IMG/VR virus record: IMGVR_UViG_3300013121_000016
Coordinates: 39,170 to 103,169 of that record
Strand: one strand, 5' to 3'
DNA from: a virus
Taxonomy: Duplodnaviria; Caudoviricetes
Length of the DNA stretch: 64,000 bases
Shown here: positions 2,355-56,263 of the stretch, piece after piece
How positions within the stretch are numbered: the stretch's first letter is position 1
Layout: each line of letters opens with the position of its first letter
Made by a program: the position numbers and the translations under genes
Notes under the pieces: generated by a model
The model's input: the letters and a program-made list of their open reading frames with translations, nothing else
What the model was told of the DNA's origin: nothing
Database searches by the model: none

Positions 2355-2428
2355 AGGGTGGTAGTTCAATAGAGTTAGAATGACGGTCTTCAAAACCGTA
2401 GATGAGGGTTCGAGTCCCTACTGCCCTG
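2355..2428 (+). tRNA. opal (UGA) suppressor tRNA-Trp, anticodon UCA
   Basis: Cloverleaf: acceptor AGGGTGG/CTGCCCT, D-arm GTTC..GAAT, anticodon arm ACGGT-CT[TCA]AA-ACCGT (anticodon 2390-2392), short variable loop, T-loop TTCGAGT, discriminator G; body resembles bacterial tRNA-Trp; CCA not encoded. Confidence 0.93.
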
Positions 2429-2445
2429 CTAATTTAAACTTTGCT

Positions 2446-9415: not shown

Positions 9416-9472
9416 AGCTATAGCAAATTTTATTTTTTATAATTTCTACTTACCCAAAAGCACAATCTATAA

Positions 9473-9484
9473 ATAATTTTGTAT
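9473..9484 (+). promoter_or_regulatory. ATAATTTTGTAT motif (contains the Bacteroidota TAnnTTTG -7 consensus)
   Basis: An identical 12-mer recurs at 27408-27419; both lie in rare intergenic gaps just before an ATG. Confidence 0.35.
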
Positions 9485-28095: not shown

Positions 28096-28510
28096 AAACT
28101 ACTCAGACACTTTTAATGATTACGAGAACAAATACGACATTTCCAAAGCGGACTTTAAGAAAATCCTTTATGCTTTCAATACCCTCTTAGCTGCCTCTAC
28201 AGTTACAGAGGGTAAAGTCTATAAAATGCCGTACACCTTAGGTTTCCTAGGTGTATTTAAAAAGCCACTTGTTGGAAAAGGAATATTTGATTATCAATTA
28301 TGGAAAGAGACAGGCATAAAGAGGTTCAAGAAGAATCCACATTCAGCAAATTTGGTAGCCCAAGTCCTTTGAAGGATTCAATTTCCAATCTGCGATTTGT
28401 TTCTTTACTCGCGAAATCTTTTCAAGTTTAAAGCCGTCAGATACTATAACCGCTTCTTGGCCCAAAAAATAAAAGAAGACAACACCATAAACCTATATTA
28501 TGACAAGTAA
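28070..28510 (+). CDS. crAss-type IHF-like protein, 146 aa with 1 TGA=Trp
   Basis: YKMPYTLGFL; TGA 28370 read as W restores QVL[W]RI...FKFKAVRYYNRFLAQKIKE ending TAA 28510 and closes the gap to the next gene. Confidence 0.7.
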
Positions 28511-29300
28511 CTACGTTTCAATAAAATCCGTCTTACACGAGCTAGCTATCACCATTGATGATCGCTACTGGAACGAGACAACTATCTTGGAATGGGCTAC
28601 CCGTGCATTGCGTCAGACTAACTTAGAACTTAAGCTCGAACAGGTTCCAGTAATCTTGGAGGTGTGTGAGCACAAAGCAACACTTCCTAGCGATCTAAAG
28701 TATCTTGTTCAAGTAGTATACAAGGTCACTTCCTTAGACTCAAATGCAGCTGAGGCTGTAATAGAAGATCTACAGTTGCCCGAGAACTCAGAACTCTTAA
28801 CGTCAACGACAATCATTCCGCCATTCAAGTGGGCAGCAATGAGGCAAGCCACAAACCCATTTCATAACTCAATCTGCCTAGATGAAAGGCTTACCCACTG
28901 TGCGGACTGTAAATACGAATTCTCGGTTTCCCCTTCACTTGTTCTGACAACTAATATGCGCAATGGTACCATCATGGTCTCCTACCTACGCTATCCCTTA
29001 GATGAGGAAGGGAACGCACTCATGCCGGATGACGAGACGCTCAAAGAAGCCATTTTCCACTATGTACTTTACCGCTACTGGGTATCGAAATATCAAATGA
29101 AAGAAGAAGGTGCCGAGTCCCGCGTTAAGTTCCATTTAGATATGTGGAGCACACTTTCGAAGAAAGCTCGGAACATCGACTTACCGGATACTTCTACGAT
29201 GGAGAATCTGATGAATATTCGCAATAGATTGGTACACAGGTCCAGACGATTTGATCAGGCCTTTACAACATTAGCAAATCAAGAATATGTTAGCCACTAA
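28500..29300 (+). CDS. tail tubular/ring protein (P22 gp4-like position)
   Basis: YVSIKSVL, ILEWA..AL, HKATLPSDL, SYL.YPLDEEGNALMPD motifs; directly precedes the stabilisation protein. Confidence 0.75.
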   Translation: MTSNYVSIKSVLHELAITIDDRYWNETTILEWATRALRQTNLELKLEQVPVILEVCEHKATLPSDLKYLVQVVYKVTSLDSNAAEAVIEDLQLPENSELLTSTTIIPPFKWAAMRQATNPFHNSICLDERLTHCADCKYEFSVSPSLVLTTNMRNGTIMVSYLRYPLDEEGNALMPDDETLKEAIFHYVLYRYWVSKYQMKEEGAESRVKFHLDMWSTLSKKARNIDLPDTSTMENLMNIRNRLVHRSRRFDQAFTTLANQEYVSH

Positions 29301-32300
29301 TACATTTACACGCGGCATTAACCAAGATACGCTTCCTAAGTTTCAACCTGAAGGAACATATCGGTATGCGCTCAATGCAGTGTTAGAAACTGAGAATGGA
29401 GACACGCCAACGGTAAGTAGCGAGTTAGGGACTACGTATTGTGCAATCGACTGGCCTACGGATAAAACACTCATAGGGCACACATTAACTGATTCAGACG
29501 ATATTGTTCTTTTCTTTTACGACCCTACGCCCTTCAGACCTGAGCACGAAATTGGAATCTATAACCCAAACACTTGTAGGTATACGACACTTGTAGTTGA
29601 CCAGTTCCTTAACTTCTCAGACAAATACCCTGTAAATGCCTTATTTCGCGTTCGTAACGGCTGTGATGGTTTTGTATACTTCACCGATAACTACAATCCT
29701 TACAGGGTCATCAACATCTCTGATACCTCAGACTGGGTAAACGGTTTTGGAATGCTCACCTCACCCTCAAAGATCCTACTGTCCCGCCCTTATACACTGC
29801 CCACAATTGCGGCACCAACTAGTCCAGTCAAGTACGTAATTGATTCTGGAGGCCAGCTTGAGTATGGAGCATACTCCTTCTATATCCGCTACCTGGACAT
29901 CGATTCTAATCCAACGAATGAATGGATTCCTCTTACTAATTATATACCTATTGGTAAAGGTCTGCAAGTAAACCAGAGCAATACTTTGTTGGGGGGAGCT
30001 TCTAATAATATTGCTTCGGCTTTATACGCAAACAAAACAAATAAGTCGATAAGATTCTCGATAGATAATCTTGATACCAACTTCAAATACTATCAGTTGG
30101 CGGTGGTTAAACGTACGTCAGATTCAGGAGCAATCTCTGGAGTAGATGTGCTATTTCCTGCACCAATCACAACAACGACGGAGCAATATACTTATACCGG
30201 ATTTAACTCTCAAGTTCTGTCTGCTGCATCAATCGAGGAGATACTAGTACCACGCCAACGCATAGAAAAAGCAGTAGCTCACGTGATCCAAGATAGGCGA
30301 CTTTATTTTGGGAATAATTCTTTTACAACGCGTGATTACTCTACTTATCAAAGGTATGCCTCTAAGATTAAATTAACTTACAAGGCGACAGCTGCTGGCG
30401 ATAGAGATGCAAAGAATCCGCAGAACTACATATATGGACACACGCTTTGCCACGATGAGATTTATGCTCTAGCTATAGTCTATGTACATGATGATGGCTC
30501 GCTCTCACCAGCCTTCCACATCCCGGGCCGCCCGGCCAATTTGGACTTTACAGGGCACACTAATCCGTACATAACATCATACACTATATGGGACCGAGAT
30601 GATATTACAGGAGATCCTAACATATTTAATCCGGCAAAAACAGAACGCTGGCAGGTCTTTTCAACGGCAACTATTGATACTGCTAACTCAAATGCTCTGG
30701 AGCACGTTGGATACTTGGGGTTTCACGAGAATCCACAAACGTACCCTATAATTGAGACCTGTGATGGTGGAGACTACTGGGGGCTAGACTGGTATGGTAA
30801 TCCGCTAGATGGAGATAAAATTCGTCACCACAGGATGCCTGCACAGTGAATGTATGTTGGAGCAGGTAACGCCTCTTACGGACAATATAGGATCACACTC
30901 GAATTAGATAATCTTGAATTTCCGGACTCATCAATTGTAGGTTACTATATTGTCTATGGAGACCGTACGGAAGATCGCACAGTCCTCGATCGCGGATTTA
31001 TTAAACCTCTATCATGGGATCCCACTGATGAAGTGTACTATTATGATTATCCTGATTGGGATATAATGTACTTGCGCTATGATGCAGAAAATAACAAGAA
31101 CTATTCTTTCGTAAGTCCTAACACATTATTTAGGTCAGCCTCTTTAGGAGGTGATTACATTTCCATAGAGAAGCGTTTGATAGCAACTCCAACAGATAAG
31201 ACGGACACTAATGTAGTTGACGCTGTTGAGTGGGATGAGACACTAACCGTCGATTCTAATATATACGAGTATAATGAATACACACGACCGACTAGAATTA
31301 ACTATAAGGTCGTTAATACTGACACTGTAACAAAGCATACAGGAACAGTTGGTAATGACGCTACGATCCAGACAGGTAACTCAACCTTCCTGCAGTCTAC
31401 GACTGGAGACCGCATGGAGAATCGTTCACGCTCCTCTAGCATAGGTATTTACGAGTTAGAGGATTACATGGAAGAGCTCGATGAAATACCTTTCGCAGAT
31501 GATGTGGACCACGTCACCGACTATACTGAGTTCGAATTCGAAGCTTTCATTGCTGCAGCTAAATCAGACAGAGACGTATTTACAAATCTATACACGATTA
31601 ACTATAAGCGTTTATCACCATATGTACATCTAGGTAATACTACACCCATACAAATTGTAGGCGGTGACATGTTTATGCCTTGGCTAGAAGTACTAGAGAA
31701 TTACTGGAACTCAACACAGACGTACACTCACTTAGTGAGCGCTCAGATAGTGTCTGATATTAACACCGAGTTCAGATATTACTCTCAAATAGATAGAGGC
31801 TTATATACGCACTACAGATATCCAGGTGGATATGACCATAAATTACTTTCTAACTATATATCCACTAAGTATTATCAGCCGACAGTAGATATCCATTCAT
31901 TCTATTCTGAGTACTACGAGGTCAATCCTAGCTATTCTTACCAGAATGTTGATAATGTGTACACGCCTATTCCTTACGACTACCAGTTCTGTAACGACTG
32001 TATAGAAAACTTTCCGTATAGAATTTACTATTCAGAGTTGGACAACGAGGAGGAAGCGCAAGATAACTTTAGAGTCATCCTTCCCAATAACTATTCTAAT
32101 ATAGAAGGGGATTCAGGACCGATTACAGACTTGTTTACGGCATTTGACCAGATATATGTTACTACAACAAATGCAATCAAACGTGTGCCAACTAAGGCAC
32201 AAACCCTTAAGTCAAACGAGAACACGATCTATATTGGAACAGCAGAAGTCCTATCCTTACCTTTAATAGATTTAGTCTCTACAGACTATGCAATGGGCGG

Positions 32301-33405
32301 CATGCCTAACTTTAAGCACAGAATCCTTACAGAGTTTGGAGTTGTTTATGCAGATCCATACTCCTCTAAACTTTTCCTACTGTCTAACCAGCTTAATGAT
32401 CTGACACAAGCCGGTATGCGTAACTTCTGGCAAGAGAATGGTAAGCTTACTTTAGCAGATCAGTTCAAGTCTATTACTGGACAGGACTATCCTTTATTGC
32501 ATACCACTTCAGCTTCTGGAGTTGGATATATTATGTCCTATGATCCAAGATACAAGCGAGCGATAATCCATAAAAGAGACTTCGAGATACTCCCCCAGTA
32601 TGCTAACACTTTGGTGTACTCAACATCTACAGATCCGTTGGTGATGTGGTTTGATGGTAGTGATTTCTACTTTAATGATGCTGCCGCTACTCCTGTTCTT
32701 TTAAGTCTTAATGATTCTAATTACTTCATGAATCGCTCATTTACCATTAGCTACTCATTCATAACGAGTGCCTTTGCGTCCTTCCACTCTTACTTCCCCA
32801 CGTACTTCTTCAATACGTACAAGACGTTTTACTCTAATGGACCCAACAAGCATAACTTCGGACCTTTCCAAACGTATTATGATATAAAGCAGCCGCACAT
32901 TATTGACTTAGTGGCTAGACAGGATAACCTTGATGGTAAGATCTCGACTAACGTTTTCTATACTTCTAACTGCGAAGAGTACGATTTTAACACTAAACAA
33001 TACAGGCCGGTAGATGCTACGTACTCAGCGATGGTCGCTTACAATAGTTACCAGACAACTGGGCTGCAGCTACTGAACTTCGTTGATACTATGTTCGGCG
33101 CACAAGATACATCTAACAGTGCTAGTGTCACTAAAGTAGATTCTAAATACAGAATTAATAATCTGCGAGATTTAACCACTTCACATACAGCACCAATTTG
33201 GTCTTCTGATTGGTCAGATCTCTCGGGCACACCTTACTTAGATAAGGTTGTGAACTTTGCGAACATAGACTACAGTAAATCTTTATTTAACACTCAAAGA
33301 CTTCGCGACCATTATCTTGGTGTTCGTTTCTTCTTTCAACCACAAGAGAACTACAGAATATCTACTGATATAGTCGCAACACAATTTGCAAATAGAAATA
33401 GATAA
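29287..33405 (+). CDS. tail stabilisation / muzzle protein (P22 gp10-like), 1372 aa with 1 TGA=Trp
   Basis: Two track ORFs abut in frame at TGA 30847-30849; FTRGINQD, YRYALNAV, VYFTDNYNP.R.IN, IRHHRMP, RIYYS, SFHSY motifs. Confidence 0.85.
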
Positions 33406-36400
33406 TGAGTAAGATTTCCCCCAAAAAAGCTAGAGAGATCCTACAAGACGGTTCAGTTAGAGGTCGCAAGCTTACGGACAAGCAACGCAAGTTCTTTGGT
33501 GCGATGGCGGCTTATGCCGAAGGTGGCCCAATCGATCCATTTGATCCTATGTACGTTAAGCCGCCTAAACCTTCTATACAGAAATTAGGCAATATAGAAT
33601 TTGATTCTAATGCAGCACGGCCAACAGGAAGTCATCCAAATAGATTTGTAGTAAAGGATATAAAGACTGGTAAAGACTATGGAGTAAAAAGATGAAATGA
33701 TGGGACTTATGATTTTTGGAATAAGGATGAACAACAATCAGAGAAAAGCTGAAGTTACTTAAAAGACGTTTACCGCGATGATGTAGACTGACTAAAGAAG
33801 AACTTACCGGAACATTCAGTAACCGTGCGTCCTGGGGTAAGGGCAAATTATAAACCGGCTTTTAATAACATGACCATAGGAAGAGATATAAGCGATTATA
33901 TCAATGAAGCTGCACATGTTTTGCAACATAGAAGCGAGCTAAAAAATTCTAATGGTTGAGGCTGAGGTTATGATCTCGGAGAAGTAGAGTACAATATTCC
34001 AGGAACAGAGGAATTCACGGCACACAAAGAACTTGCACCGTTAATAAATGATCGCTTAACTAATAAGATGCCTCTACCAAATATAGGTAAGCTTATAACT
34101 AGCAATCCAGACTCTATGCACTATGCTAATACAGATGCTTCTATAAGACTACCTAACGGCCACTTATTAGTTTCTGATGCAACGAATCCGTATAATCCTT
34201 ACACGGACTACACACCAGCAAAGCGATATAGAGAAATTGAAAGGCAGAAAGACGGCTCGTACAGACAAGTTAAGTCTTATAAATTTGAGGACTTAGATCC
34301 TGAAACTAGATATAATCTTGATAAACTGTATATAGCGAATCCTACAGCTTTAGATAATAGTATTTATGATAGTCGCAAATATAGAGATTGAAAACGTCGT
34401 ACTGGACCAATTAATATTAAAGAGGAATACGCTAATGGCGGTCCAATTGATCCACCAAACATTCAGACCTTAGGGAACATCAAGTTTGACTCCAATAAAG
34501 CTAAAAATTTTAACGGTGTCCTGTCAGTGACAGATATAAGTACGGGAAAGGATTATGGGGTAGTGCGGAATTCAGATGGGTCATACAGATGGTTCAATCC
34601 AGAAAAGGAGAAACTTCCGTCTCAAGTAGATTATTCTAAAAACTACTATAAAGATTTTATTAATTCTCCCCAATATCCTAAAATTAATTCCGTTAAAAGC
34701 TTAGTCGATCTTGAAAAACAGCTGCGGGTAGACTACCCTGATATTGACACATATCCAGCAGATATAGCAGCATATTTTAGGGAAGGCATGGCTTGAGATA
34801 AAGCTAGGGAATTCGAAGAATGGAAAGCTTCTGAATTGGAGGTAATTAAAAATGCGGATGTTAGAATTCAAAAAAGTCCCAAAGGAGGTTCCTACTCTAG
34901 GAATTCAGATGGAGTGATCTTTATCGATCCTACTGTTAAAGAAGAGCGCGTATACGATCGCCAAGATATAATTACACATGAACTAAGTCATAACAAATCT
35001 AGGGACAGTAGAAGTAAGAGTAACCCAGCTGGAAATCTGTTTAATACACATTTCAGGGGACCGTACGAGTTCAACGCAGACTTCGATCCCTTTATTGAAA
35101 GAAGTAGAATTCAGGATTACCACGACGCAAATCCAGATGAGTATAAAGCAGATGTAAACGCACTAAGGTTTAGATTTATGCGTGATGGAATATATGATCC
35201 GATGAATCAAGACTTTACAAAAGAACATCTTGAAAAAGCCAGGTCTAACAAAAAACTTTCTAAAGATCCAATTTTTCAGAGGTTTTTAAGATTAAGTAAA
35301 GATGATGATGCAGCAATCAAGGCTTTAAACAGCATTACGAGTATAGAAGATAAAACTGATGTTTCCTCGGCCGCTTACGGTGGTGAATTAGCTAACAATC
35401 AAATGAAAAGAAAAAAGAAATATGCTTATGGTGGTACTTACCAACCTGTTGGATTACCCGTCGATCCAGCTGACATCAGAGCACAGAAGGCACAACAAAG
35501 AAAAGAAGAGGGTAACTTCTGGACGGGACTAGGTAGATTTGCTACCGATTATGCATTACCCATGATTGCTTCCGCAGTAGGCGGACCTGGTGCAGGTGTG
35601 ATAGCCAGAGGTATCTCCTCAAGACTAGGCAATAACTCCCAAGGTAATTTTGCGCCTGTTACGAGTCTGCCCGACTCGCCGACTATTGATTATGTGGATC
35701 CTTCGTTCGAGCTTGATAACGGGATCAGGACAAGTGCCTACGGAGGCCCAGTCCTGCCGCCAATGTATAGTGACACTATCCCCGCCCCGAATTATTTTCC
35801 AGCAGTAATGTGGAATACACCAGCGCCCACGCGCGACACAAGCTACGACAGAGAATACCAAAGGGCTCAAATGCGCCAGGATTCTATGTTGAAGTACCGC
35901 AACACGCGCCGCTCAATGTCAAATGCTACAGGTATCGATTACGGTTCACCAATGAATACTTCCTACCTACCAGATCGAGATTATAGGGGCGGTGAAATGA
36001 ATCGCAAGTCTAAATCAAGAGATCGTTTCAGGGAGTATGATAGTGGTGGTAGGACTTCACGGTTCCCGCACGACTCTACTGTATCTCAGTTTGATTGGGT
36101 AAATCAAGGAGTACCTTCGGCTAACTCGACATCGAAAAGAGGACTCGAGGAATCTAACAGACGTGTACTTGCTGAAGGCGATACAGGAGAAGAAGTAGCA
36201 CAGCTTCAAAATTTCTTAAAAGCTAAAGGATTTTATAAAGGAGATGTTGATTCTAAGTTTGGCAAGAGAACAAAGAAAGCTGTAAAAGATTATCAGCAAT
36301 GGTTTAATGATAATGCTAAATACCCTGTAAACTATGTACAGAATGGTAACATTGTACTTTCTGGTCCAGGCCATAAGAAAGTCGATGTGGATGGTGTTGT

Positions 36401-38240
36401 AGGAGATGAAACACGTGCAGCACTGATGTATCGTGAGATGCCTGAACCTAAGTATACTCCTAAACGTGAGCCTGCTCCTTCCCCTGCTCCTAGTACCTCT
36501 CGTCAATATACAACTACAGATAACAACGCTAATGCGGGTCCTGTTATCATGGACTATCTTTACGGGCCACTATTGGGAGCTGCTGGAGCGGCAGCCGGCT
36601 ATGGAATTGCTTCTGCCGCGTCAGCAATTGGTGCTGAAGCCACGGCGACAGGAATTGCTTCTACGATAGCTAGATTGGGCCGTAGACCAGAGGGCGCTAT
36701 CAGACCTCCGTTAAATCCTAACGTTCCTACAGCTCCTACTGCACCAGGTAATCCTGGCCCAAGGGCTTTTCCTCCTAAAACACCTTCCTCTTACGGTACA
36801 CGAGTTCAGTATGCTGATGGTGGTGACATTGATCTATCAAATGATTCATTCCAGGTAAAAGGTAACCCAAATGTTACAGACTCTGAGCTGTACGATACTC
36901 CACAAGGTCCAATTAAACTTGACCATGATGAAGTGATCAAAGGGACATTTGCATTCTCTAATAAATTGCGCAACCCTCTTACAAACAAGACCTTTGCTGC
37001 AGAGGCTGCCCCAATACAACGCGGCATAGGCAAGGCCGAAAAACGCATCACTAGAGTAGGCAAAGATAAGTTTTCAGATGCTACTATTAAGTATGCTACT
37101 CAACGCTCAGAGTCTCTAGCTACAGCGCAAGAGATAGTTGCGACGCTTAAGGGTAAACGCAACCCTGATGGCTCTACTGTACAACGCTATGCTTGGGGCG
37201 GTGGTCCAGATGACCCACCGCAAGATACAATACCGCCATATCCTTACCCGCGCAGAATGATGTCTACACAGGATATGCAGTGGTTTAATACTAAGCAAGG
37301 ACTAACCACTCCATGGGATTGGGAATACCTTCAGACAGGACAGATAGGCAGAGATCCAGTTCCAACAAAGGCTACTACACCGGTAGCAAACAAAGGAAAG
37401 GCTAGATCCAAAGCCATGTCTACCGAGGAGTTCTACAATAAGTACCCTGGGTCCAGGCCTTACCCGAATTGGCCGGTACAATCGACGTACGAGAACCCAT
37501 TCTCTACTGCCCCACTCCAGCCACTGCCCACAGCCAACCCGGCCCTACAAGTTCCGTATACAGGGGTCGTGTCCCAAAAGGGTTCGTTCGAAGATCGTTA
37601 TTCTCAATTACCGCCTGATCTTAAGAAGAGTTTGACCACTAGTCCTGCTGCAGCGACACCAGGCACCACCAATACAGGTGCAACTGGTAACTACGGCAAT
37701 ACTGTAGGAGATCTGCTCCAATTGATGGAAGTAGGTTCAAAGTTTGGTCAATTGATTGGCGGCCCTGAAAAAGAACCTACCTACCAAGATAACACTCCAA
37801 TTACTCAACAAGCCTACGACGTATCTCCAGTCCTTCAACAGAACCAGGCTAACTATCAGAACGCTCTAAACTCTGTTGACACGTCTTCTTTGAATCTACG
37901 CAGAGCTCTAGGTGCTCAATTCTACGCTAATAAAATTGATGCAGATTCTAGAGTCTTGTCGCAGTATCAAGAGATGAACAATCAAAGCAAAACTCAATTC
38001 CAAGATAGAACTTCAGCCCAACGCAGATCTAACATAGGTCTTAAGATGGCAGCAGATCAGATGAACGCTCAGAATCGTGGACGTTATAATGATGCTGTTC
38101 AAAATGCATTTACATCTTTGGGTAACTATGGTCAAGCAATGAATCAACGACAGCAGTCTATGGAGGCCCTGAATATCCTACGTGCCATTTACCCAGATGT
38201 ATATGCACGCATAATGTCTCAAGCAAATGGCACTAAATAG
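33405..38240 (+). CDS. modular cargo/ejection protein, 1611 aa with 7 TGA=Trp
   Basis: Four track ORFs lie in one frame with only TGA between them (33693, 33750, 33789, 33957, 33963, 34389, 34794); zincin-like HELSH, PG_binding_1-like domain about 36165-36430, eight YAxGG-like motifs, Q/N/A-rich helical tail. Confidence 0.8.
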
Positions 38241-40161
38241 ATTTTTTAACCCAGTACCATACGAGGGGGAGCTTTATGCTCCTCCAGTGGACTTTATTGC
38301 AAAAGCCTTAGATGCAACGCAAAGGCGTTTTGACGCTAACTTTGTTGAGGCTAACGCACTGAAGAATAAGTATATTAATGCTAGACCTCAGGATCGTCCT
38401 CGTGCTGATGAAATCCAGAATGAGATCTCATCTAAGATTGACGGTATAGTGCAAAAGTACTCAGGCGACTACTCACAAGCTACAAAGGATCTCTACCTTC
38501 TGAAGTCAGATATCGAGAAGAAGCTCGCACCTGGGACAGAAGGGTACACAATCTCGGAGAACTATCGACTTTACAACGAGGCTCTAAAGAACGAAAGAGA
38601 TCGCCTTGCAAAAGGAGAAATCACTCAACAACAGTTCGAAGCATTAAAGAATCATATAGATACTACGTATAAAGGAGTAGCCGCTGATCCTGTTACTGGA
38701 GCATACAATCCTACACAGATCGAGCCCCTTGCCACCTATGTAGATTCTAACAAGATCGTATCTGAAGCTCTAGACAAGCTTAAGCCTAGGGAACAGACAC
38801 GCGTAACTCCTAAGACAAATCCTGCAACAGGACAGATTGAACTATACAAGGAGACTGTCTCGGCTATCGATCCCATGGAGGGCTATCAAGCCATTCAAGA
38901 TGCCCTTATGCAGGATGATAAGTTCCAAGCGTATTGGGATCAGATTAACCGCCTTACAGGAACAGATCCTAAAGCAGCTATGCAGGAAGTTCTTTACGGA
39001 TACGCCACTTCTACAATCCCCGCACGTACCGGTATCTTCAAGCAAGCTCAAGATTTAGAGCTGCATACTAATCCACTTCAGCTTGAGGAACTCCGTTTCC
39101 GTAATCGTGTTAGATTTGATCAGTACAAGCGCAAGCAGGATCAAGCCGAGATGTATGATGGTACCGAGCTCTCTGTTCTGGGTACTGCCGCCACCGGTCC
39201 TAACATGTTTAAGCCTATTAGCTTAGAAGGTAGTTTGACTACTGGAGCACTCCCATTCATTATGGGTAGGACAGGTAAACCTAACGTAGATCAGATCCTG
39301 TCTAGCCGTTCTCGTGGGGACGTTAATTACCCACTCCTTAAGTCTATTAGAGCAGCTAATCCTAACATGCAATCTGATGACGTGCTTCGTATCTATAATG
39401 AGAATGTAGTGAAGGGTGACAAGTACGGTACAGATATATACTATACTAAATATGCTACGACCAAAGCGCAGAACGAAGAGGCTGATAGATTAATTCCTTC
39501 TCTACTTACTGGCCAAGTTCCTCTCTATGAGTACGATACTCGTACTGGACGCATCAGAAAGATTGAAGAAGCTAGCGAACGAATCAAGTTGGCCACCTCA
39601 TGGTACGATAAAGATACTCGCAAAGCTAACATCAAAGCTTTAGGCAAGTCAACCATCCAGTCTGGACATTTACCCTTCGGTACAATTCTTGCTCCAACTG
39701 GAGAAAAGGGTGGTTACTTTAGTAGCGGTACTGGCGGTAAATACTATGTTGCCGCTGACCCAGGTGTGAAAATGAATCAGTTAAACTTTGGCTTAGACGG
39801 ACATGGAGGTATTCGCAAAAAAGCATTCGGCTTTATTCAAGATCCCACACAAGACTTTGGTGATACATTCGATATCCAATTTGCAGATGGTTCCAAAGTA
39901 GAAGTCATGGGCGCCAAAGAGTACATTTACGAACCTTCGTCCAGACAAGCAATTCCTCAGGTAAGATACTATACTGTCAAGCGTAACGGTATAGGTGGTT
40001 GGGTCCCCAATTATGATGACCCTCTTACCGAAAATGGCCGCTATCTCACTCCTTATGATATAGAAATGCTCCTCATTCCTCCGTCAGAAGTAGTTAAACG
40101 TTTTCCAAGAAATCCAATTAGTCCATCTAAAGAATCAGATGTTCCATTAGAATCATATTAA
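38227..40161 (+). CDS. putative ejected/cargo protein
   Basis: 644 aa; NRF..P..Y...YAPP N-terminus; lies between the cargo and RNAP genes. Confidence 0.6.
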   Translation: MALNRFFNPVPYEGELYAPPVDFIAKALDATQRRFDANFVEANALKNKYINARPQDRPRADEIQNEISSKIDGIVQKYSGDYSQATKDLYLLKSDIEKKLAPGTEGYTISENYRLYNEALKNERDRLAKGEITQQQFEALKNHIDTTYKGVAADPVTGAYNPTQIEPLATYVDSNKIVSEALDKLKPREQTRVTPKTNPATGQIELYKETVSAIDPMEGYQAIQDALMQDDKFQAYWDQINRLTGTDPKAAMQEVLYGYATSTIPARTGIFKQAQDLELHTNPLQLEELRFRNRVRFDQYKRKQDQAEMYDGTELSVLGTAATGPNMFKPISLEGSLTTGALPFIMGRTGKPNVDQILSSRSRGDVNYPLLKSIRAANPNMQSDDVLRIYNENVVKGDKYGTDIYYTKYATTKAQNEEADRLIPSLLTGQVPLYEYDTRTGRIRKIEEASERIKLATSWYDKDTRKANIKALGKSTIQSGHLPFGTILAPTGEKGGYFSSGTGGKYYVAADPGVKMNQLNFGLDGHGGIRKKAFGFIQDPTQDFGDTFDIQFADGSKVEVMGAKEYIYEPSSRQAIPQVRYYTVKRNGIGGWVPNYDDPLTENGRYLTPYDIEMLLIPPSEVVKRFPRNPISPSKESDVPLESY

Positions 40162-40162
40162 T

Positions 40163-43100
40163 ATGCCAGATATTTCAAGTAAAAAAGTAGTTTCGCCTCT
40201 CGAAGGTTCAGTTAGACCTGACTATGGGGCTTTTCACAGATACGAACCACTAGGTTCTAAAGACACTGCACTCGGCAGATTTACAGGTAACTACTATGAC
40301 AGGGCATTCATTCCAGAATTCTCACAAGCAAATCAACGTTACTACAATCAAGACTGGTTAAACGCCACCGGCGATTTCTTTGCTGGCTTAGGTGTGAAGA
40401 CAGCCTCAGGCTTACCTAGCCTTGTAGGTGGGATTACCTCCTTAGCAGCTTCTCCCTTAGCCTTGAGAGACGATGTAGCCTTTCAGGATGTGTTCGAGAT
40501 GAACCCGTTGAATATGCTAGCCAGATCAATTTCGAAGACAGCAGACGAAGCATTCCCGACATTCCAACGAGAAGACTTCAACGATCTAAGATTGTTTGAT
40601 CAGATATTAAGACCAGGCGAAGCTTTTACATCCAATCTAGACACACTATCATTCCTTGCACAGTCTTTCCTTGGTGGCGGCTTGCTAGGTAAAATTGGTG
40701 CTGGTGCTAAATTAGCTGGCCGTCTGTCGGGTGCTGCTGCCGATGTCTCACCGGTGCTCACTCCACTAGTTGGACCTAACCTAGCTCGCACAGCTAAGAT
40801 CGCTGATTGGTTGATTTCTGATACAGTACTCACTACTAATGAAGCTGCAGCTGAAGGCAAAGACGCTGCAGAGCAGATCCGTAATCAATTACACAGTGAT
40901 CGTCTTGCCGGATTAAACTATTTCTCTGATGATGAAATAGAGAAGAAAGCAAACGATGCAGCCTATAATGTCTTCTGGACAAACTTTCTTACACTCTCCG
41001 TTACAAACGGAGCTTTTGTTAAATTACTTTCGCCGCTCTATAAGACTAAGGATGTTCTTACAAGAATGAATCCTTATGCTCTTAAGTTAGCTGAAAAAGG
41101 TTTAGCTGAAAAGCGTGTGTATACAGGGTTTGACAAGTGGCTATTTGACAAAGGTTACGGACCGGGAATGCTTACTAAGGAACTCCTTCTCCAACTTGGA
41201 ACGGAAGGTCTTGAAGAGGATCTACAATATTCTATCCAGAAAGTAAACAACGTAGACAATCTAAAATCTTCGTACTGGGAGTCTTTGAAAGAATACGGTA
41301 AGAACTTCCTTACGGAAGGTCTAGACTTCTCGGATAAAGATCGGGAGAAAGCAGTTGGACTTGGCGCTATTCTTGGTGCTGGGTCTGTAGGTGTCTCGGA
41401 AGCTTTAGGATTTGGTCCCCGCAAAGAAGCCAAGAATTACAGGGAAACCCGCGATGAACTCATTAAAAGCTTAAACGAAGGCTACACTAATCTAGTGAGT
41501 TCTTCAGTGGCTAAAAAGACTGAACCCATCAATGGACGGCTTTACGAGTCTGACGGTAAGTACTACCACGAGGTAAATGGTAAGGCCGAAGAGATTAACC
41601 AGACTGCGTTTGATTCACTTCAACAGCAGCTCCCACTAGACAATAAAGGTTCTTACACGATTCCTTCACGCTACGAGATAGATGTAGATGGTAATGTTGT
41701 CATTGACGAGGTTAAAGCTAAGGAGTTTGCAGCACAAGCTAAAGTTCAGGCTGAGCTCGATGACCTGATTGCCCAGGAGCTTTCTAAGGTTAATCCCGAT
41801 GAACTTAAACTGAAACTTTATCAAAGAGAGAAACTCAACGACTTAGCTAAGACTGCTTTTAAAGCTGGAGCAACCGACTTACTTCTTAATAAGATTGACT
41901 CCCTTCGTCGCATAGGTCCAGAGGGTTTGGCTGAACTTGGAATAACTGATGAGACTCAAGTAGAGAATGAGATTCAAGGAATGAAGGATCACATCTCAAG
42001 ATTTGAGGAGCTCTATAAAACAACGTACAACTCTACGATCATCGGCAGCACATCAGCTGAAGCAGCGCGTATTAATAAGGAACGCCAAGACATGATCCTC
42101 TCACTTGGTGGACGCATTATAGCACTTGATGATTTGGTTGCTAGCAACAGAATAAAGTACGATGAGAAACTTGCAGATACTTCCTACGATCAGGAAATCT
42201 TGAAGACTACGCTAGACAAACTGGCTAAGAAATCAATCGTATCTACAGAATTGCAAGACCTCTACGCCGAACGCAACCGTATCAATAGTCTTCTTCCCTA
42301 TGCCGTAGAGCGCGGAAAGCTCAAAGACATTAACGATAAGATTGATGGTAAGATCTCTGAGATCAAGACTTTAGAAACGGACTTGAAAGAAGCCGAGAAG
42401 TTTATTCCTCTCGCATCAGATTCTAAGATACAAGAGCTTGCAGCAATGCAGATCAATGAGGACTACATGACCAAGGCTCGTGAAGAGGCTGGTCGGGTTT
42501 TCAATAAGCTCATTGATCCACGTAAAGGCTACAAGAATTTTGCAGCTCATAAAACTGACAGATCTTTACTTACTCCTTACGAGCGTGCCAGACTCCCATT
42601 CTCTTTACATAAAGACGTGACGCGTAACGAGTATGAAGCTTATGAAGATCGTAAAACTAAACAGCTCGGTTACAACCAAACGCTCAAGGTTGCTCAACAT
42701 GAGCACTACTCCGAGTTAATAAATGAGTTCCTCAGGTGGGCAGCACGTGCCGACACAATTAACTTAGAAACCGCCGAGTCATTAAAAGCTTTGGTTGGAG
42801 AGATACTCGATAATAATCTTCGTGTGTATCCAGAAGAAGGTAACAAACTCATCGGATACATGCAACAGCAGGTAGCTCAGATCGAGGAAAATCTTAATCA
42901 GATTATAGACGAGGCTGAGAATATCGGTTTCGATATTGTTAACCTCCCTGCGCAGACCCCTGAAGAAGAAACTCTCCAAGAAGAGTTTGATAACCTCCAG
43001 CAAATACACACAGCGCTTGGATTTATAGCTGACGACATACAAGGGACCACAGATAGGCTTCGACAGTTATTTGACTACCAAGTCCCTGTTGCTTCTCAAG

Positions 43101-46100
43101 ACGAGCTGCGCACTAATGCTGCCGAAGAACTAGTTCAGAGCAGTGAGACACTCGTTAATATGGCCATCAAAGATGGAGAATTTAACGACGACTTTGACGA
43201 GTTAGATCGTGTCCTTCTTGAGGAGGAGCTTCTGGAAAAGTATGCCAAAGATGTCATCGAGCCTAAATCGTATGAAGAGCCAAGAGTATATGGTAAGCTT
43301 TCTTCAAGAATCAAAGACCTGCTTGCTTCTCTTAAAAGAATTAAAGAGCAGATCATAAAGAATCGCGCCGACAAGGAGCTTAAGGCACGTGAAGAGATTA
43401 TGATGCGCCTTGAAGGACTCAAGAATCTTGTGGGGCTAAACGACGATAACTCCCCTATAGTCCAAGACCTTGGCGAAGAGCTCACAGCAAAACTCCGGAT
43501 ACTGGCAGAACAACAACCACTTGACGCGTACTATGTTTTGATGGACGCAGTATCTGATCCTAAGATGCTTGCCGTGCTTTCAGAATTTAAGAGGGAAGTT
43601 AAAGACACTATTAGTAGTCTAGCCATATGAGGAACGGACTCTCCAATGGCTGTGCGTCTAAGTGAAGCTGAGCTTGAAACCTTTGTGACCAATCCCGTAC
43701 GCGGTCTTCAAATCTTGTTACGCGCCATTCACATTAATGAGAACCAGATAGGTGCAACGAATCAGGACGTACTTACGGCCTATCTTCGTGATTACGATAT
43801 CGTAAATCTCAAGAAGAGACTTAATGGTTATTCTGGAACCTTGACAACTCCTGCGCAGATAGAGAACATCATTAAGCTCTACATGAAAGCGCTAGCTTAT
43901 CAAGATATGACTTTAAGTCGCTCGAATGAGAGTTATCGTAAACTTGTGAATACGTATCTAGCTTTTGTAAAGAAAAGTCAGGAAGACAAGAAGAACAATC
44001 TTCCAGCAGTTCCGCCCCCGAGCGAAACACAGATGAAAGCTGTGTCCGAGCTCGCTAGATTTTTAATGTCTCCGATAAATGAAAGGCATTATGTATTCGA
44101 TAATGTTGCTGCTATCAAGGCTCCAGCAGGAGCAGGTAAAACCACTGTCGTATTTAGACTACTTAAGGAAGTCCTCGGTTATGGGCCAGATACTATCATG
44201 AGTGGTTCCACGACACAGGCCTCGGCACAGTTAATTGCCGAACAAGTCTCTTCCACCTACGGCGCTAATGAAGCCACTAAGATCACAGAGTTACTAGAGG
44301 AAGGTAAGTTACCGCCTGCCGTTAGGTTGCTTGTACTAGATGAAATTGGTGCTCTAGGCGTACGCGAAATGCAGCGCTTAGCCGCGGCCATTGTATCTCA
44401 TAACCTGTCTAAACCTAAGCAGCAGATTAAGGTGCTGTTCATGTACGACTCTAACCAGCTAACTGCTGGCAATCGTGGGGATGCAGTTATCGACATCAAT
44501 CCTTTCTATGAAGTACCTGAGAATATCACAGAGTACCACAATGGGGACGAAGTATCTAAGCGCAAGTACAAACAAGGACTACATACAGTAAACGGGCAGT
44601 ACGATCCGCGTTTTGCAAGTGGCGTAAACTTTCCGCACCATATCTTTGATGTGTCTCCTCTTATTGCTACCTACCGTTCTCCGCTCTCTGAGATCATAGA
44701 TGCACAAAATGCGTTTAAGTCGACACAGGTAGTTGAGTCTATTCAGACTGCAGCAAACGTGGACACTACTGGATCCATGGTAGGAGCTATGGGTACAATG
44801 GCATCTAAGACAAACGGCCAGCTTCTTACAAAGCTTGTAAGTTCTTACAACTCTAACCCTGGTAGAACTAGAATGGTCGTAGTGGGAACAGATGAGAAGA
44901 AGGCTAGATACATGACTGATTTAGCAACCGCCGGAGCTGCGGATGTGCAAGTCTTAACTGCGGCAGAATGCAGAGGCTTAAAGGCGCAGGAAGTGTACGT
45001 AGATATTGAGAACACAGATTCACATTATTACTCAGAACCAGTTGCTTACAACCAGGCGATGTATACGGCAACTTCAAGGGCCGAAACATTCTTGTACATA
45101 AGTGGAATAGCTAGTAGTCGTCATACAGTCGATGCTTCGCTTCCGACCAAAGTAAATGAAGTTCTTAAGAGTAAAGATATTAAGTACGATACAGTTATCG
45201 ACGCTCTCACACAGCGCTCAAAAGCTTTTGAGATCTTGGGAGCCGAAGAACCTGTCACTCCTCCGAAGCCACAAGAGCCGCAGGCTCCACCAGTAACACC
45301 TGAGGAAGCTCCTGAGATTCTTAACGGCGGAACTCCTATTGAAGAGGATGAGCCCCCTATTGAAGAGTCGCCAGCTCCGCCCGTAGGCGGAGACGCCCCA
45401 CTCCTTGACCCGACAAGTTCCAATTGGCATAAAATATCCGCCCCGCAATCTGAAGCGTTTAATGACGCTCGCCTCGGTAGCATTAGACCAGAAGAAAAGG
45501 TATTCTACGCAAGGGAGGTGGATAATGGAATGTCTCGTATACGTGTCTTTGTCGCAGGTCCAACAGAAGGAACTTTCAGACAGATAGGTATTCTCATGGA
45601 TCACGAAGTTGGCTCAGTGTCTAAAGTTCTCGGCGCAGACTTAACGGCCTTACCGCCGACAAAGTTCTCGCCTGACCTTCTTAATGATACTACTGGTAGA
45701 AATATATTCAGAGCAATTGGTCCACAGCCTGTCAACATTGCCGACGCGAGAGTGTCGAGTGCGTCCACCGATATAGAGTACAAGTATGATTCCCCATTAC
45801 CGACCTTTACATTCAAAGGCACACCTGATGATCCTAACGGCTTAAAAGAGATCGCCAAGTATATGACTGACGCTCTGTTTGGAACGCAAGCAGGTCAGAT
45901 TGTGAACTTAGATGATTTCAATTCTCGCCCAGAGGAATTTATGCGTTTAATTGTTTACGAAAACGAAGCTGACAGAAATGCAGACTTCCCTAACGTAATA
46001 AACAAGCCACGTCTAAATATCCCATACCTTATAGTCCACGGACTTAAGACGAATAAGGGTAAGACAATGGCTCGCCAGTTTATTCAGCTTAACGCTACTG

Positions 46101-49100
46101 TACTTGATAGCAACACAGAAGCCGCCGATAGACTTAACTTAAAAGCGATGCAAGAGTTAAGTTTTGTCTTAGGTGCAATGGATGATTTACTCCGAACACT
46201 CAACTTACCGGCTAGTTATAACAAGATTAGGATGGGAGAAGCCATCGTGACAGGTAACGACATCTTTTACCCCTACCATGCTTTTATTGTAGAGCTATCA
46301 AATATATATCGCAAGCAACGCGCTGGAGAGAATCCCACCACACTCGAGATGGTGCGCCAGAAGAACTCTGCGATCTACCAATTGTTACCGGATATTCCCG
46401 TTAGTTCTCTACCAAAGGAACTACTCGAAGTCGCATATAAGATCGACGTCTATATGCACGGCAATGCTATAGGATCACCTAAAGAAAAATCACGCCGTAC
46501 TTATTCAGGTCCTGCACAACAGGCGTTCTCCAGAATCGCGAAGCAGAACTTAATCATCACACTTCCGGACGGCACTAATAAAATCTTACGCGACTTCTAC
46601 GCAACAGAAGATCGTTCCGGTAGAGATATTGAAGTATCTACGGGTGCGTCTATTTTAGGACCTATTAAGTTTGTTAGAGATGGAGGGCGCTCCTATAACC
46701 CTTCTTTGAAAGCGTCGTTGGTTAGACGTCTTAAAGACTACAAAGATTCACTTGAAAGGAGAGGACATACTAACTCTCCACGTTACGAGTTAGTTGACAA
46801 GCTTGTTCAGCAGCCTGAATACAGCCACATCAAACCGTTTACGTTACCACAATTCATGTCGTTCATTGGCGCTAAAGATGCGTCAGGAAAGTATACTGGG
46901 ATTTCCGAAGGGTTTGGATTAAGGATGCCGTTGCCTAAAACTGCTAATAATAAATTCTACCTCACGAACAATATTAATGACATTAAACTTTCAGACTACG
47001 TTGAAACTAATCTCACACAGATCAACCCAACAAGAATAATAATTGAAGTCAGAGAAGGTGGGTTAGTTAAGACTGAAGAAGGTCAAGCATTTGCTGCAGC
47101 GATATCTGCACCAGTTCAAATCGGGCAGTTCATTCGACAGAGCACTGCAGATTCGATGGTATTGGCTAAAGAGATTTTAGATAAGTTCAGTGAAGACGCA
47201 GTCGAAGCCTTCATTGATAGGATGACTGGTGAGGGCACGACTGGTTTCATGCCGCTGGCAAGAGCCATTGAGGAGTACAGAGAGAATGCCAAAGAACAGA
47301 TTGGGTACGAGCAAAAGTCACACTCGATCTTTACAGCCATTCAGTCTTTGCGCCGCTCTCAAACTAGCACCTCTATGGTTGATCGCGCTCTCACTGCCAT
47401 TAAGCAATCTCATGCGGTTGTTGATGTGGGCAAAAATCAAGGTAATTATGCTGCCAGAGACTTCATTCGTGCAGCGATCTACATGGAGCTCCTACCTAAC
47501 TTAGACAAGAAAGATATCTACGATCTCTTAGACTTCGCAAGATCATACTATAGAGACAAAGCTGGAATTGCACACCAACTTGATCTTAGTTATCTGCTTA
47601 GTGCTTATGGTCCAGTGGACGCCGCTAAACACGCAGAGGCCGTCTTCTACGCTTACATGGAAGCTTTCGATCAGCTGGGTGTAAGACTAGAACCAATGCT
47701 CGTAAATAAGTCGCAAGAGTTTCTAGACATCCTTACTCACGTAGAAACCCTTGTTAAAGCGTCAACCACATATCGTGAGTCTGAACGTTCAGGCGCGGCT
47801 CCCATAGACGTAAGTGCACAATTTAGATCGTGGCTTTCTGCTATGAACTCCGCATCCAAGATGGAAAGCACTGATGCTTTAGAAATGCTCGTAGAAGATC
47901 CCACGACAGCGCATCACGTTAAACAGTTCAACGATTTTGTAGGGGATAAAGAATTTAACTGGGCAAATCTGACTGCGAATCTTGCTAAGGTAAATGCACT
48001 TTTGGACATAGAGCGCTCGATGATTTTAATTACTGAGGAAGACAATATAGGTGAGTTAATCACGGAAGATGAGGCCTCAGATTTAGCTTACCAGTTTAAT
48101 CCGCCGAACTTAGTTCAACAGCTAAAGGCTTTATTCACCGGACAGATAGATCATCCTCAAGCTCTCCGCTTTGTAGATTGGAATTTACGTCAAAAGCAAT
48201 TAGGTGATAAACTCTGGGGACAATACAAGAATGGAATTACTAGCATGGTTAAACATGCGTCAGGCAAGGTTGGTACTCGAGTGGTACGACACGAATTGTT
48301 TCACAAGATCTTCTGGGAGTTTATGACGCCCGAAGAAAGGTTCCGTGCGCTAGATTTAGCACAAGCGCAGTGGGGTCCTGCAGATGCTGTTAAACAAGAA
48401 GAGAGGCTCGCTGAAGCATTCTCTGATTTCCAAAGACCAGACCCCTCGTGGCTTATGTCTCTTTGGGAGATGCTGAGAAACCTATGGAGGCTAATAGGCT
48501 TTACTTACAATAACATGTCTTCTATTGACGACCTATTCAAGTCTATCGAGGCTGGTTACTATAAAGGTAAAGGTAAGCCTGCTAATGTTGAACGCTCTAT
48601 GCTTTACATAGGTACGCAGTTTGATTCTGTCGATCACTTTACATTTGCCAAGCAAGCACTTTTTGAAGCATTTAACAAGCTGTTCTATGAGAGAAATCTA
48701 GATACTAGAGTCCTGTCTTATGAGGAAGCTGTTAATGGTGCTTTCGAAATGCTCAACAACTACACTTACAGTGGGGTTGCGGCTTCAGATATTGAGTTTC
48801 AAAAAAGCGCAATCGATTCCCTTACAAAGAACGAGAAAGTCAAGCGTGCTTTTATTGAGTACTACTTTGGTGCTTCTAATGTAGCTGATGCTCAACGGGT
48901 AGCGCGATATAAAGAAAAAGGTGCTGAACTCGAAACACTCCGCTCAGAGATCGAACGTCTTACAGAGATCATGGAGACTGATCCAGAGAGTTTTACTGTA
49001 GATGATGAGGAAGCTTTGATTGATGCTGAAACACAAGAGGCTAATATTGCTGATTACATCTTTGATTCTGAACTTCAGGACCCTGAGGATTCTGTAACAG

Positions 49101-55100: not shown

Positions 55101-56263
55101 ACGGAAGTGACTTAGCGCTCCCAAGATTTATCAAGCGCTTTGATGACACTGTGTACATGAAGATTCCTACAGGCACAGAAAATGCAACATATTACCGGGC
55201 AATTACACGCACCACTCGCCACAAGTTCTACTTCTTATCAGATCCATCTGTAGGATCGAGCTTTGATTTAGATCTCTTGTCAGCACAGCAGACTTTACTC
55301 ATTCCGCTAAGTTCTTTAGTTCCCAATGGCTTTAAGACCACTGATAACCTTGAGGAGGGAGAAATTGCGTACATATACGACAACCTCTCTCCACACCCGC
55401 AATCGCTCAAACGCATAAAAGTCGAGAGATTAGCTTCCTCTCTTGGCGGATACAATACGTACACTTACACCCACATTGGAGAAATCACTCTTACAGATGA
55501 AGCCTCTATTACGGAGCTTAGAGAACAATCATTGTCTATTGACTCATCAGTTGATGCACGTGTTGTCACGGTTTCGACCGCTAGAGAAGCCATTGAGAAT
55601 GCACGGAAACAGCGTAATCGTTCAGCCGTATCCTTAGTCAGAGATGATCAAGCTGGAGTAGGTGATAACGTTTACAAGCTAGATATACAAACTATCAATC
55701 TAGATGCAAGCAGTCAAGAGATTGCAGACTATATTGAGCGCGTAATGAAACAGATTAGAAAGATTCCTAACAATGTAATCGTATATACACCGGCAAATCT
55801 TCTTGATCCGTTAATGGATGCTACACCAGACATAGCTAAGAAATTTGCAGAGGCCATCTATGATCGGACTGGTTTTGCCTTCCCTATACTCAGCGAGGAG
55901 AATCTCGACTCACGCTTACCAGAGGCCGCACAACTGATCATCAAACGCAGAGAAATTCTCAAAGCAGTTCTTAACAATGGTGTGTTAGTACAAGAGTCTG
56001 ACAACACAGCACTTGCACCTTATAGAGTTCTGATAAGCGACATTGCGACAACTAACTCGTTTACGAAAGGTAAGATTCGTCAAGGAAATATAATTTCTAT
56101 AGGTCAAGTAAACGGCCACGAGGTGTATGCATTTGTGGATTACGTCACTGATACTTACCTTTATGTTACACCATTCTCTGAAGATGTCTTTATGCTTCTG
56201 CAAGAAGAGCGGTACAGTAACGAAGACTTTTATAAAATTATCGACAACTTTAATAAGTGCTAA
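40163..56263 (+). CDS. giant virion polyprotein (5366 aa with 2 TGA=Trp): membrane-like N-terminus, SF1 helicase-like, zincin-like and two-barrel virion RNA polymerase domains
   Basis: Three track ORFs are in frame, separated only by TGA 43628 and 50189; Walker A APAGAGKT (44120-44143), LLVLDE, YTATSRA; HELFH (48290-48304) plus EERLAE; RNAP motifs TDAEG, MKP, FRIP, GSDNDVD (52334-52348). Confidence 0.85.

Follow-up and report, generated by a model that had tools for sequence, protein, structure and literature searches.

Internal proteins of phage T4 carry a capsid targeting sequence of about 10 residues with Leu/Ile-x-Glu at its end, which the prohead protease gp21 (Peptidase_S77) removes, and cleavage at Gly-Gly is known from adenovirus (adenain), from the African swine fever virus (ASFV) pS273R polyproteins and from C39 double-glycine leaders. 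No phages are more abundant in the human gut than the Crassvirales, which are also frequent in other environments. In the Crassvirales phage crAss001, the portal is a 12-mer and cargo protein C1 (gp45; PDB 7QOG and related) is present at an estimated maximum of 12 copies per virion (Bayfield et al. 2023, PMC10172136). Here we describe a gene called, on synteny and fold, as that of a C1-type cargo protein. It lies in a window of 64,000 nucleotides (positions 39,170 to 103,169 of IMG/VR virus record IMGVR_UViG_3300013121_000016; Caudoviricetes), and its product is punctuated by a short tag built around Gly-Gly that recurs at module joints and at the starts of related genes.

The cargo protein resembles gp45 in its position after ring protein 1 and the muzzle protein, in a portal-binding domain that is the same by fold and weakly by sequence, and in having a basic leader, hydrophobic helices and an Asn/Gln-rich C-terminal domain. 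It differs in being twice as long (1611 amino acids (aa) against 842), in carrying as extras module A, module B1, the zincin-like module B2 and a peptidoglycan (PG)-binding module (Table 1), and in being read with TGA as Trp. It also resembles the polyvalent proteins described by Iyer, Burroughs, Anand, de Souza and Aravind (2017, PMC5512222), which are likewise large, multi-domain and presumably delivered together with the DNA, with a zincin-like hub domain, cell-wall-directed domains and modules shuffled among relatives; here the zincin-like B2, PG_binding_1, hydrophobic modules and a virion-binding domain all lie in one polypeptide. That paper describes no junction peptide and the word 'linker' is absent from it, whereas here a conserved tag stands at joints and gene starts, and the carrier would, by homology, be a portal-bound structural component.

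The T4 capsid targeting sequence is likewise a short N-terminal leader on proteins packed in the head and injected, but the tag described here is also found internally and near C-termini, and no Peptidase_S77 was found in this phage, in a search whose control was silent. With the adenain, ASFV and C39 sites the tag shares Gly-Gly after a hydrophobic residue, in a virion protein or leader. It departs from them in that, compared with the adenain consensus, the hydrophobic residue is separated from Gly-Gly by one more position, that Gly-Gly often has Pro after it, and that one homologous site is uncut.

The Gly-Gly tag and its placement

The sequence-only reading had listed eight motifs of the YAxGG kind in the cargo protein, and all eight are present, at the positions it gave, in the translation with TGA as Trp; a ninth copy, DYRGG at 35979, had been overlooked. 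The PIDP/PDDP it noted after several motifs occurs as GGPIDP twice and GGGPDDP once. Strict YAxGG is found five times in the protein against 0.038 expected, and none of 20,000 shuffles reaches five. In a six-frame translation of the window, 5 of 6 YAxGG and 3 of 3 AYGG fall in the cargo gene, and within the protein 9 of the 12 Gly-Gly sites have Tyr among the three preceding residues. The codons of the tags vary synonymously (TAT/TAC, GCC/GCT/GCA, GGT/GGC/GGA), which argues for selection on the peptide and not on the DNA, and explanations at the DNA level (a repeat, a recombination site or a ribosome-binding site) were rejected on this ground.

A HMMER search with residues 1-1200 gave 1677 hits, from which relatives other than plain PG-binding repeat proteins were taken for analysis of the motif. 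In these relatives it is present many times per protein. A logo of 452 Gly-Gly sites from 56 proteins reads K(-4) Y/F(-3) A/Q(-2) T/S/N(-1) G G P/D(+1) I/L/V/M(+2), giving an eight-residue consensus K-[YF]-[AQ]-x-G-G-[PD]-[ILVM] with 2 to about 10 copies per protein. The sequence-only reading had placed the motifs at boundaries between unrelated segments, and the ends of local alignments to relatives (n=140) do cluster there: 66 of the starts and 65 of the ends are no more than 12 residues away from a motif, where 11.9% would be expected, the hits being non-independent and the p-value therefore nominal. The motif scan proposed at that stage, extended to boundaries in relatives, found the tag conserved both at joints inside proteins and, in separate proteins that open with these modules, at a distance of 5-17 residues from the N-terminus. 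In two AlphaFold2 (AF2) models the tags have pLDDT below 50 and the value exceeds 90 just after Gly-Gly, folded parts starting within a few residues. A tag sits at every module joint, in a linker predicted to be disordered.

Many relatives begin with M-(K/R)n-tag, followed by a module that in the cargo protein comes after an internal tag; N-termini such as MKKKKYNNGG and MKKCAPKKKYATGG are of this kind. The N-terminus MKKKKYNNGGPIEPNIQTLGNIKFDSN of one relative corresponds to the module at residue 342, and P0037, P0067, P0081 and P0023 open with M-(K/R)n-tag and this same module. MKKCAPKKKYATGGTYQPVGLPVDP is the N-terminus of a relative corresponding to the module at 673, P0003 has a leader, a tag and then the module at 878, and P0012 and P0136 are the counterparts of module A. 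Leader and tag stand at the start of the C1 gene in six related loci, directly at the muzzle stop codon, which shows these to be true N-termini. Because the genes of relatives open M-(K/R)n-tag-module, the tag belongs to the module that follows it.

The same arrangement is seen in crAss001 gp45, which has a leader and tag (MAKKKIKRRGKMPPNIFDTGG) and six internal tags, the seven tags being FDTGG 17, SAYGG 206, FAEGG 260, KAFGG 329, AYCGG 388, NAFGG 424 and FAYGG 559. NAFGG and FAYGG stand on either side of its Pfam CARG1 domain (424-555). When 15 C1-like proteins are aligned, the two tags that enclose the portal-binding domain each keep to a conserved column. The C-terminus of gp45 (gene at 7988-10513 of crAss001) reads EYTGG-TKKAKGGKVRTKKKKGLTYG, a tag with a Lys-rich tail that mirrors the Lys-rich leader and tag of the N-terminus. 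By sequence, the tag extends beyond Crassvirales into related virion proteins of phages of Bacteroidota: in Cellulophaga phage phi4:1 (non-crass, 146 kb), region 4234-9140, the virion proteins gp040 and gp041, verified by mass spectrometry, carry it (FQAGG, YQNGG, FQIGG and FQSGG), gp041 with two HExxH domains and gp040 ending in KWGGKKR.

The other presumed cargo genes of the window, namely the 644-aa gene at the C2 position, a 5366-aa RNA polymerase (RNAP) fusion and a 1530-aa gene, have no tag. As a general packaging signal for cargo the motif is not supported by this result, since without tags in these genes the tag cannot be a general loading signal. C2-like proteins of four relatives (loci L006, L007, L010 and L011) have [YF]-[GN]-[PA]-G-G near residue 100, a form that is absent from the C2-position protein at 38227-40161. 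No paper describing the tag was found, and Bayfield et al. (PMC10172136) is silent on tags; the tag is real, widespread and apparently unpublished.

The cargo gene, its modules and its neighbours

The order of genes in the window is ring 1, muzzle, cargo gene, C2-position gene and large RNAP-type genes, which matches gp43-gp44-gp45-gp46-gp47 of crAss001. The cargo gene stands at the place of gp45, in keeping with its earlier description as a cargo protein, and the succession of muzzle, C1-like, C2-like and giant RNAP gene is maintained at six related IMG/VR loci. An AF2 model of residues 1120-1300 is folded from Gly-Gly-Asp (1139-1141) to about 1258. The top match of this model in Foldseek is the portal-bound gp45 domain (7qog_M; E 3.6e-3, probability 1.00), and the same chain is the top match in VIA-align, with a moderate Z of 6.6 and an rmsd of 3.6 A over 105 of 126 residues (chain range 425-551). 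BLASTP aligned cargo residues 1166-1301 with gp45 464-591 (E 1e-3), placing YAWGG on FAYGG. Neither residues 1126-1611 nor 1126-1265 matched Pfam crAss_CARG1 (PF25725) even at E = 10, whereas crAss001 gp45 matches it at 2.3e-66; the cargo sequence is too divergent for this model. A phmmer search of the whole cargo protein against PDB sequences did not find gp45 either, so that a fold search was required for the link. The cargo gene is, by synteny and predicted fold, that of a divergent, enlarged C1-type protein in a TGA-recoded, crAss-like phage, and by homology to crAss001 C1 the 1611-aa protein is most likely carried in the particle and injected.

The window belongs to a complete 103,169-bp IMG/VR record with terminal repeats, from a phage known from metagenome only. 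Its capsid protein shares 30% identity with that of Flavobacterium phage FpV4; crAssphage records are among its weaker matches. No close relatives of the whole cargo protein were found in IMG/VR, and a word-indexed search at near-full length recovered only the window's own cargo protein.

The start codon (ATG) of the cargo gene overlaps the TAA stop of the muzzle gene. Under translation table 11 the region 33405-38240 is broken into a 1134-aa open reading frame (ORF) from 34836 and fragments before it. All seven in-frame stops are TGA and all fall within the first 464 codons, and some of them align with Trp in relatives. The sequence-only reading needs correcting in that the frame stays open only if seven TGA codons are taken as sense. 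The same holds for the portal, which is whole only with TGA as sense, its two halves matching a single PHROG profile (positions 8-370 and 384-793), and for the muzzle gene, both halves of which match one PHROG and one Pfam family. The possibility that the first 477 codons are an untranslated pseudogene was rejected, homologues at 38-70% identity being found for this part, and it is further ruled out by the TGA/Trp alignments and by the need of portal and muzzle for TGA as sense.

The cargo protein is made up like beads on a string, with at least seven independently evolving modules (Table 1). The kinds of segment named by the sequence-only reading (a peptidoglycan-binding domain, Gly-rich hydrophobic helices and Pro-rich linkers) are all present. 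A basic module of about 35 residues of the module A type (KAREILxDG...LTxKQRxFF) is found at N-termini and inside the relatives P0012, P0136, P0086 and P0132, always with a tag after it, and has no match in Pfam. Modules B1 and B2 are related only in a head of about 100 residues (phmmer 1e-15). B2 has HELSH at residue 525 (34977-34991) and EYKAD at residue 579 (35139-35153), the latter a candidate third metal ligand of the ExxxD type, and both are in the consensus of the alignment of B2 relatives. In VIA-align the AF2 model of B2 (pTM 0.79) found zincins in all of the top 50 entries (neprilysin Z 8.9, Zmp1 8.4, lethal factor about 7, Pro-Pro endopeptidases (PPEP) about 5); Foldseek gave weak E-values of at least 0.08. 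On this model B2 is probably an active zincin-like (gluzincin) metallopeptidase. The plural "zincin-like cassettes" earlier proposed therefore holds for B2, with its HExxH and zincin fold, but not for B1, which shares the head and lacks HExxH. Module C is the N-terminal module of the relatives P0114, P0124, P0128, P0034 and P0066. The PG_binding_1 domain (PF01471) at residues 927-968 scores 47.7 bits against a cut-off of 23, with PDB relatives that include SleB and an endolysin, and Gly/Ala-rich hydrophobic stretches lie at residues 715-738 and 1046-1089.

Composition changes sharply within the gene, at the composite junction with its start-like leader. GC content jumps from 0.35-0.39 to 0.49-0.53 at residues ~650-690 (33405-35400 compared to 35440-38240), and TGA accounts for 7 of 9 Trp codons before codon 465 and for 0 of 10 after it (Fisher p = 7e-4), compared to 0-22% of Trp codons in other virion genes. 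A composite junction of the form tag-x(1-6)-M(K/R)4-5-tag, with the Met kept, is found here and in six other representatives with different downstream modules. We infer from sequence composition that the block formed by the first 666 residues was acquired recently, from a phage of lower GC content and heavier recoding. This foreign block would have been fused head-to-tail and in frame onto the old start of the resident gene (M667-KRKKK-YAYGG).

Several other features of the window were noted in passing. The sixth YAxGG is a single YAMGG at 32287, residue 1001 of the muzzle protein. The muzzle proteins of this phage and of the relatives L006, L007, L010 and L011 have one Y-x-[FM]-G-G each, at residue ~1000-1050 (YAMGG, YSFGG, YHFGG, YAFGG and YSFGG); this may be an element akin to the tag, or simply a turn that the fold conserves. 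Downstream, reading TGA as sense joins three table-11 ORFs (1155, 2181 and 2004 aa) into the 5366-aa frame at 40163-56263, the two TGA codons lying where the separate genes would have ended; the frame may encode a fused RNAP polyprotein, or the two codons may be true stops within a block that is recoded. This frame carries HELFH at residue 2710 (about 48290) and is without consensus tags. At 56257-60849, ORFs of 1058 and 458 aa join across a single TGA into the 1530-aa frame. All four of the large ORFs of this block that end in TGA continue in frame into the next ORF.

Table 1. The cargo gene, its tags and modules, and associated features, in window positions
Feature	Position	Strand	Remarks
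tRNA, anticodon TCA	2355..2429	+	reads UGA; required for translating the cargo gene
Tail ring protein 1 (CrAss_Ring_1)	28500-29297	+	synteny anchor
Muzzle protein (crAss_MUZ)	29287-33402	+	one ORF, one TGA read through; synteny anchor
C1-type cargo (ejection) protein gene	33405..38240	+	1611 aa with TGA read as Trp; protein label P0001
Module A, residues 1-36	33405..33512	+	basic leader module KKAREILQDGSVRGRKLTDKQRKFF
Tag 1 YAEGG	33513..33527	+	then PIDP
Module B1, residues 37-341	33513..34427	+	~100-residue head as in B2, divergent tail without HExxH; 6 of 7 in-frame TGA codons
Tag 2 YANGG	34428..34442	+	then PIDP
Module B2, residues 342-655	34428..35369	+	head domain and predicted zincin-like metallopeptidase fold; phrog_24249
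Composite junction AAYGG-ELANNQ-M667-KRKKK-YAYGG	35370..35435	+	AAYGG 35370 trailing tag, start-like leader, YAYGG 35421 leading tag
Module C, residues 673-776	35421..35732	+	TYQPVGLPVDP module; Gly-rich hydrophobic helix at 715-738
Tag 5 SAYGG	35733..35747	+	then PVLPP
Module D, residues 777-877	35733..36035	+	Pro-rich, basic linker module; contains DYRGG 35979-35993
Tag 6 YDSGG	36036..36050	+	embedded M865-NRKSKSRDRFRE leader before
Module E, residues 878-1135	36036..36809	+	PG_binding_1 36183-36308, Gly/Ala-rich hydrophobic helices 36540-36671, Pro-rich linker
Tag 7 YADGG	36810..36824	+	Gly-Gly-Asp (nearly) invariant in alignments of relatives; opens the portal-binding domain
Module F, residues 1136-1261	36810..37187	+	CARG1-like portal-binding domain; BLASTP match to gp45 464-566, E 1e-3
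Tag 8 YAWGG	37188..37202	+	then GPDDPP; aligns with FAYGG 559-563 of crAss001 gp45
Module G, residues 1262-1611	37188..38237	+	Pro-rich linker and Asn/Gln-rich helical C-terminal domain, common to all C1-like relatives

Possible roles of the tag

We give even chances to the reading in which the tag, mostly left uncut, is a seam and handle that some conserved component of the virion or of its assembly recognises. The tag would be an exposed short linear motif, kept by selection through one conserved reader in the particle or in the assembly pathway, for which the lumen of the portal, tail barrel or muzzle, or a loading factor, are candidates. A cassette between two tags would travel as part of the C1 chain, stored partly unfolded and threaded out N-terminus first; the chain would stay mostly uncut in the virion, and after ejection a packaged zincin may cut some of the tags. 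The residue two before Gly-Gly is more alike within proteins than expected (0.287 compared to 0.203 by chance, a value reached by 8 of 5000 permutations), which hints at one reader per genome, and this homogeneity together with the eight conserved positions argues for a specific reader rather than a passive hinge.

Several observations weigh against a seam and handle. SAYGG 206-210 of gp45, which precedes the helix bound to the tail barrel, is not resolved in the crAss001 structure and so is not rigidly docked at that site. A number of tags that varies from 2 to about 10 per protein is odd for docking to fixed symmetric sites, and the presumed cargo genes that have no tag would need another loading route. 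One homologous site is known to be intact; others could be cut. In addition, peptide mass fingerprinting was applied to the published matrix-assisted laser desorption/ionisation (MALDI) peak lists of crAss001 virion bands 1-10 (PMC6235969, supplement 14). It assigned bands to gp44, gp50/gp47, gp49, gp20, gp26, gp22, gp25 and gp23, and gp45 (90.8 kDa) never rose above shuffled decoys in any of them, including the 70-300 kDa bands, in which the portal was detected, a result that weakly allows for fragmented gp45. These lists, in which gp45 itself is undetected, contain no gp45 peptides spanning a tag, and two semi-tryptic masses match at chance level only.

The sequence-only reading had offered maturation-protease sites as one role for the motifs, but none of the data show cutting at them. 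In the crAss001 virion structure the gp45 chain is continuous over 425-551, through AFGG 425-428 and GG 434-435 and into the domain that follows (PMC10172136), so that the homologue of Gly-Gly 1139-1140, whichever gp45 Gly-Gly it is, is intact in the virion. The same paper mentions no protease or scaffold. Pro follows Gly-Gly directly at 4 of the 9 sites here and at 15% of the 452 sites in relatives. Pro in the position directly after a cut site is disfavoured by most endopeptidases. In the complete genome, Peptidase_C39, Peptidase_C48, Peptidase_S78 (the HK97-type prohead protease) and Prok-JAB were not found, with working controls; Peptidase_C5 (adenain) and Peptidase_S77 (the T4-type prohead protease) were not found either, but there the controls were silent too.

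A broader form of this idea is possible, though we hold it doubtful: the tags would be protease sites and the chain a polyprotein cut into effectors by a packaged zincin. This could be B2, acting in cis, or, acting in trans, the zincin domain of the cargo associated with RNAP, and the cutting could take place during maturation or, with greater likelihood, once the chain has been ejected. Products of stand-alone genes would then lose their M-(K/R)n-tag leaders in the manner of the T4 capsid targeting sequence. The predicted exposure and disorder of the tags at every joint suit such sites, as does the layout of stand-alone modules with a short leader that ends in a tag and, in some, a trailing tag near the C-terminus, which is that of a removable propeptide. 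A zincin-like fold with HELSH and EYKAD is in the same protein, and the hydrophobic residue two after Gly-Gly would suit zincins. These enzymes usually prefer a hydrophobic residue just after the cut. Zincin processing has already been proposed for phage polyvalent proteins (PMC5512222) and for fused crAss RNAP polyproteins (bioRxiv 10.1101/2020.03.07.982082), and full-size gp45 was not seen in the MALDI bands. Cutting at the tags is harder to reconcile with the intact Gly-Gly that opens the portal-binding domain in crAss001 virions, with the frequent Pro after Gly-Gly and with the genome searches for Gly-Gly-specific and prohead protease families, which found none. Moreover, most relatives with tags, crAss001 gp45 among them, have no zincin in the same protein, the likeliest true polyprotein (the 5366-aa RNAP fusion) has no tags at its joints, and phage N4 packages its virion RNAP, with just such a zincin domain, in unprocessed form (PMC5512222).

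It is unlikely, in our estimation, that loading and cutting are combined, with a cassette system for the injected proteins of Bacteroidota phages in which the tag is the universal address and a co-packaged zincin cuts the tags after ejection to free the effectors. Here K-[YF]-x-x-G-G-[PD]-[ILVM] on both sides of a cassette would lead to its loading in the C1 chain, and the effectors would be set free in the periplasm, the membrane and the cytoplasm. Internal starts at the embedded Met-(K/R)n leaders might set the ratio of long to short forms.

Distinctly unlikely is a tag without any reader, made up of fossil gene starts and flexible hinges. The basic leader and Tyr-x-x-Gly-Gly would be an N-terminal feature of once-separate genes, serving for example in membrane insertion of the next hydrophobic helix, and the internal copies would be remnants of head-to-tail fusions, tolerated because they make good Gly-Gly linkers. 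Met-(K/R)n leaders do precede the tags at residues 667 and 865 here, and such leaders are found in six other representatives; GC content and TGA usage indicate a recent fusion, and minimal C1 proteins place a hydrophobic helix directly after leader and tag. Most internal tags, however, have no Met or basic leader (Met is at 2-8% at the upstream positions against a background of 2.5%), and these leaderless tags still keep Tyr/Phe, Ala/Gln, Gly-Gly and the hydrophobic residue two after. The tags around the portal-binding domain are column-conserved from this phage to crAss001, tags stand before modules of every kind, hydrophobic or otherwise, and the residue two before Gly-Gly is homogeneous within proteins. 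Chance or low-complexity composition, in a protein rich in Gly (7.4%), Pro and Tyr, has virtually no prospect of explaining the recurrence of the motif and is refuted by the shuffles, by the clustering of 5 of 6 copies in one gene and by conservation in relatives.

Meaning for phage cargo proteins

The cargo gene presents a fusion of modules at a tag seen in progress, in which the N-terminal block, inferred to be acquired, keeps its own GC content and TGA usage. The tag predicts the positions at which modules could be exchanged, and it supplies peptides to look for in cryo-EM maps and in N-terminomics of virions. The structure of crAss001 raises the question of how megadaltons of protein cargo are loaded, stored and ejected, and the tag is a concrete handle on this question. 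Should the tag serve as a loading signal or as a cutting site, this would account for the diversification of injected proteins, including those with wall-degrading and peptidase modules.

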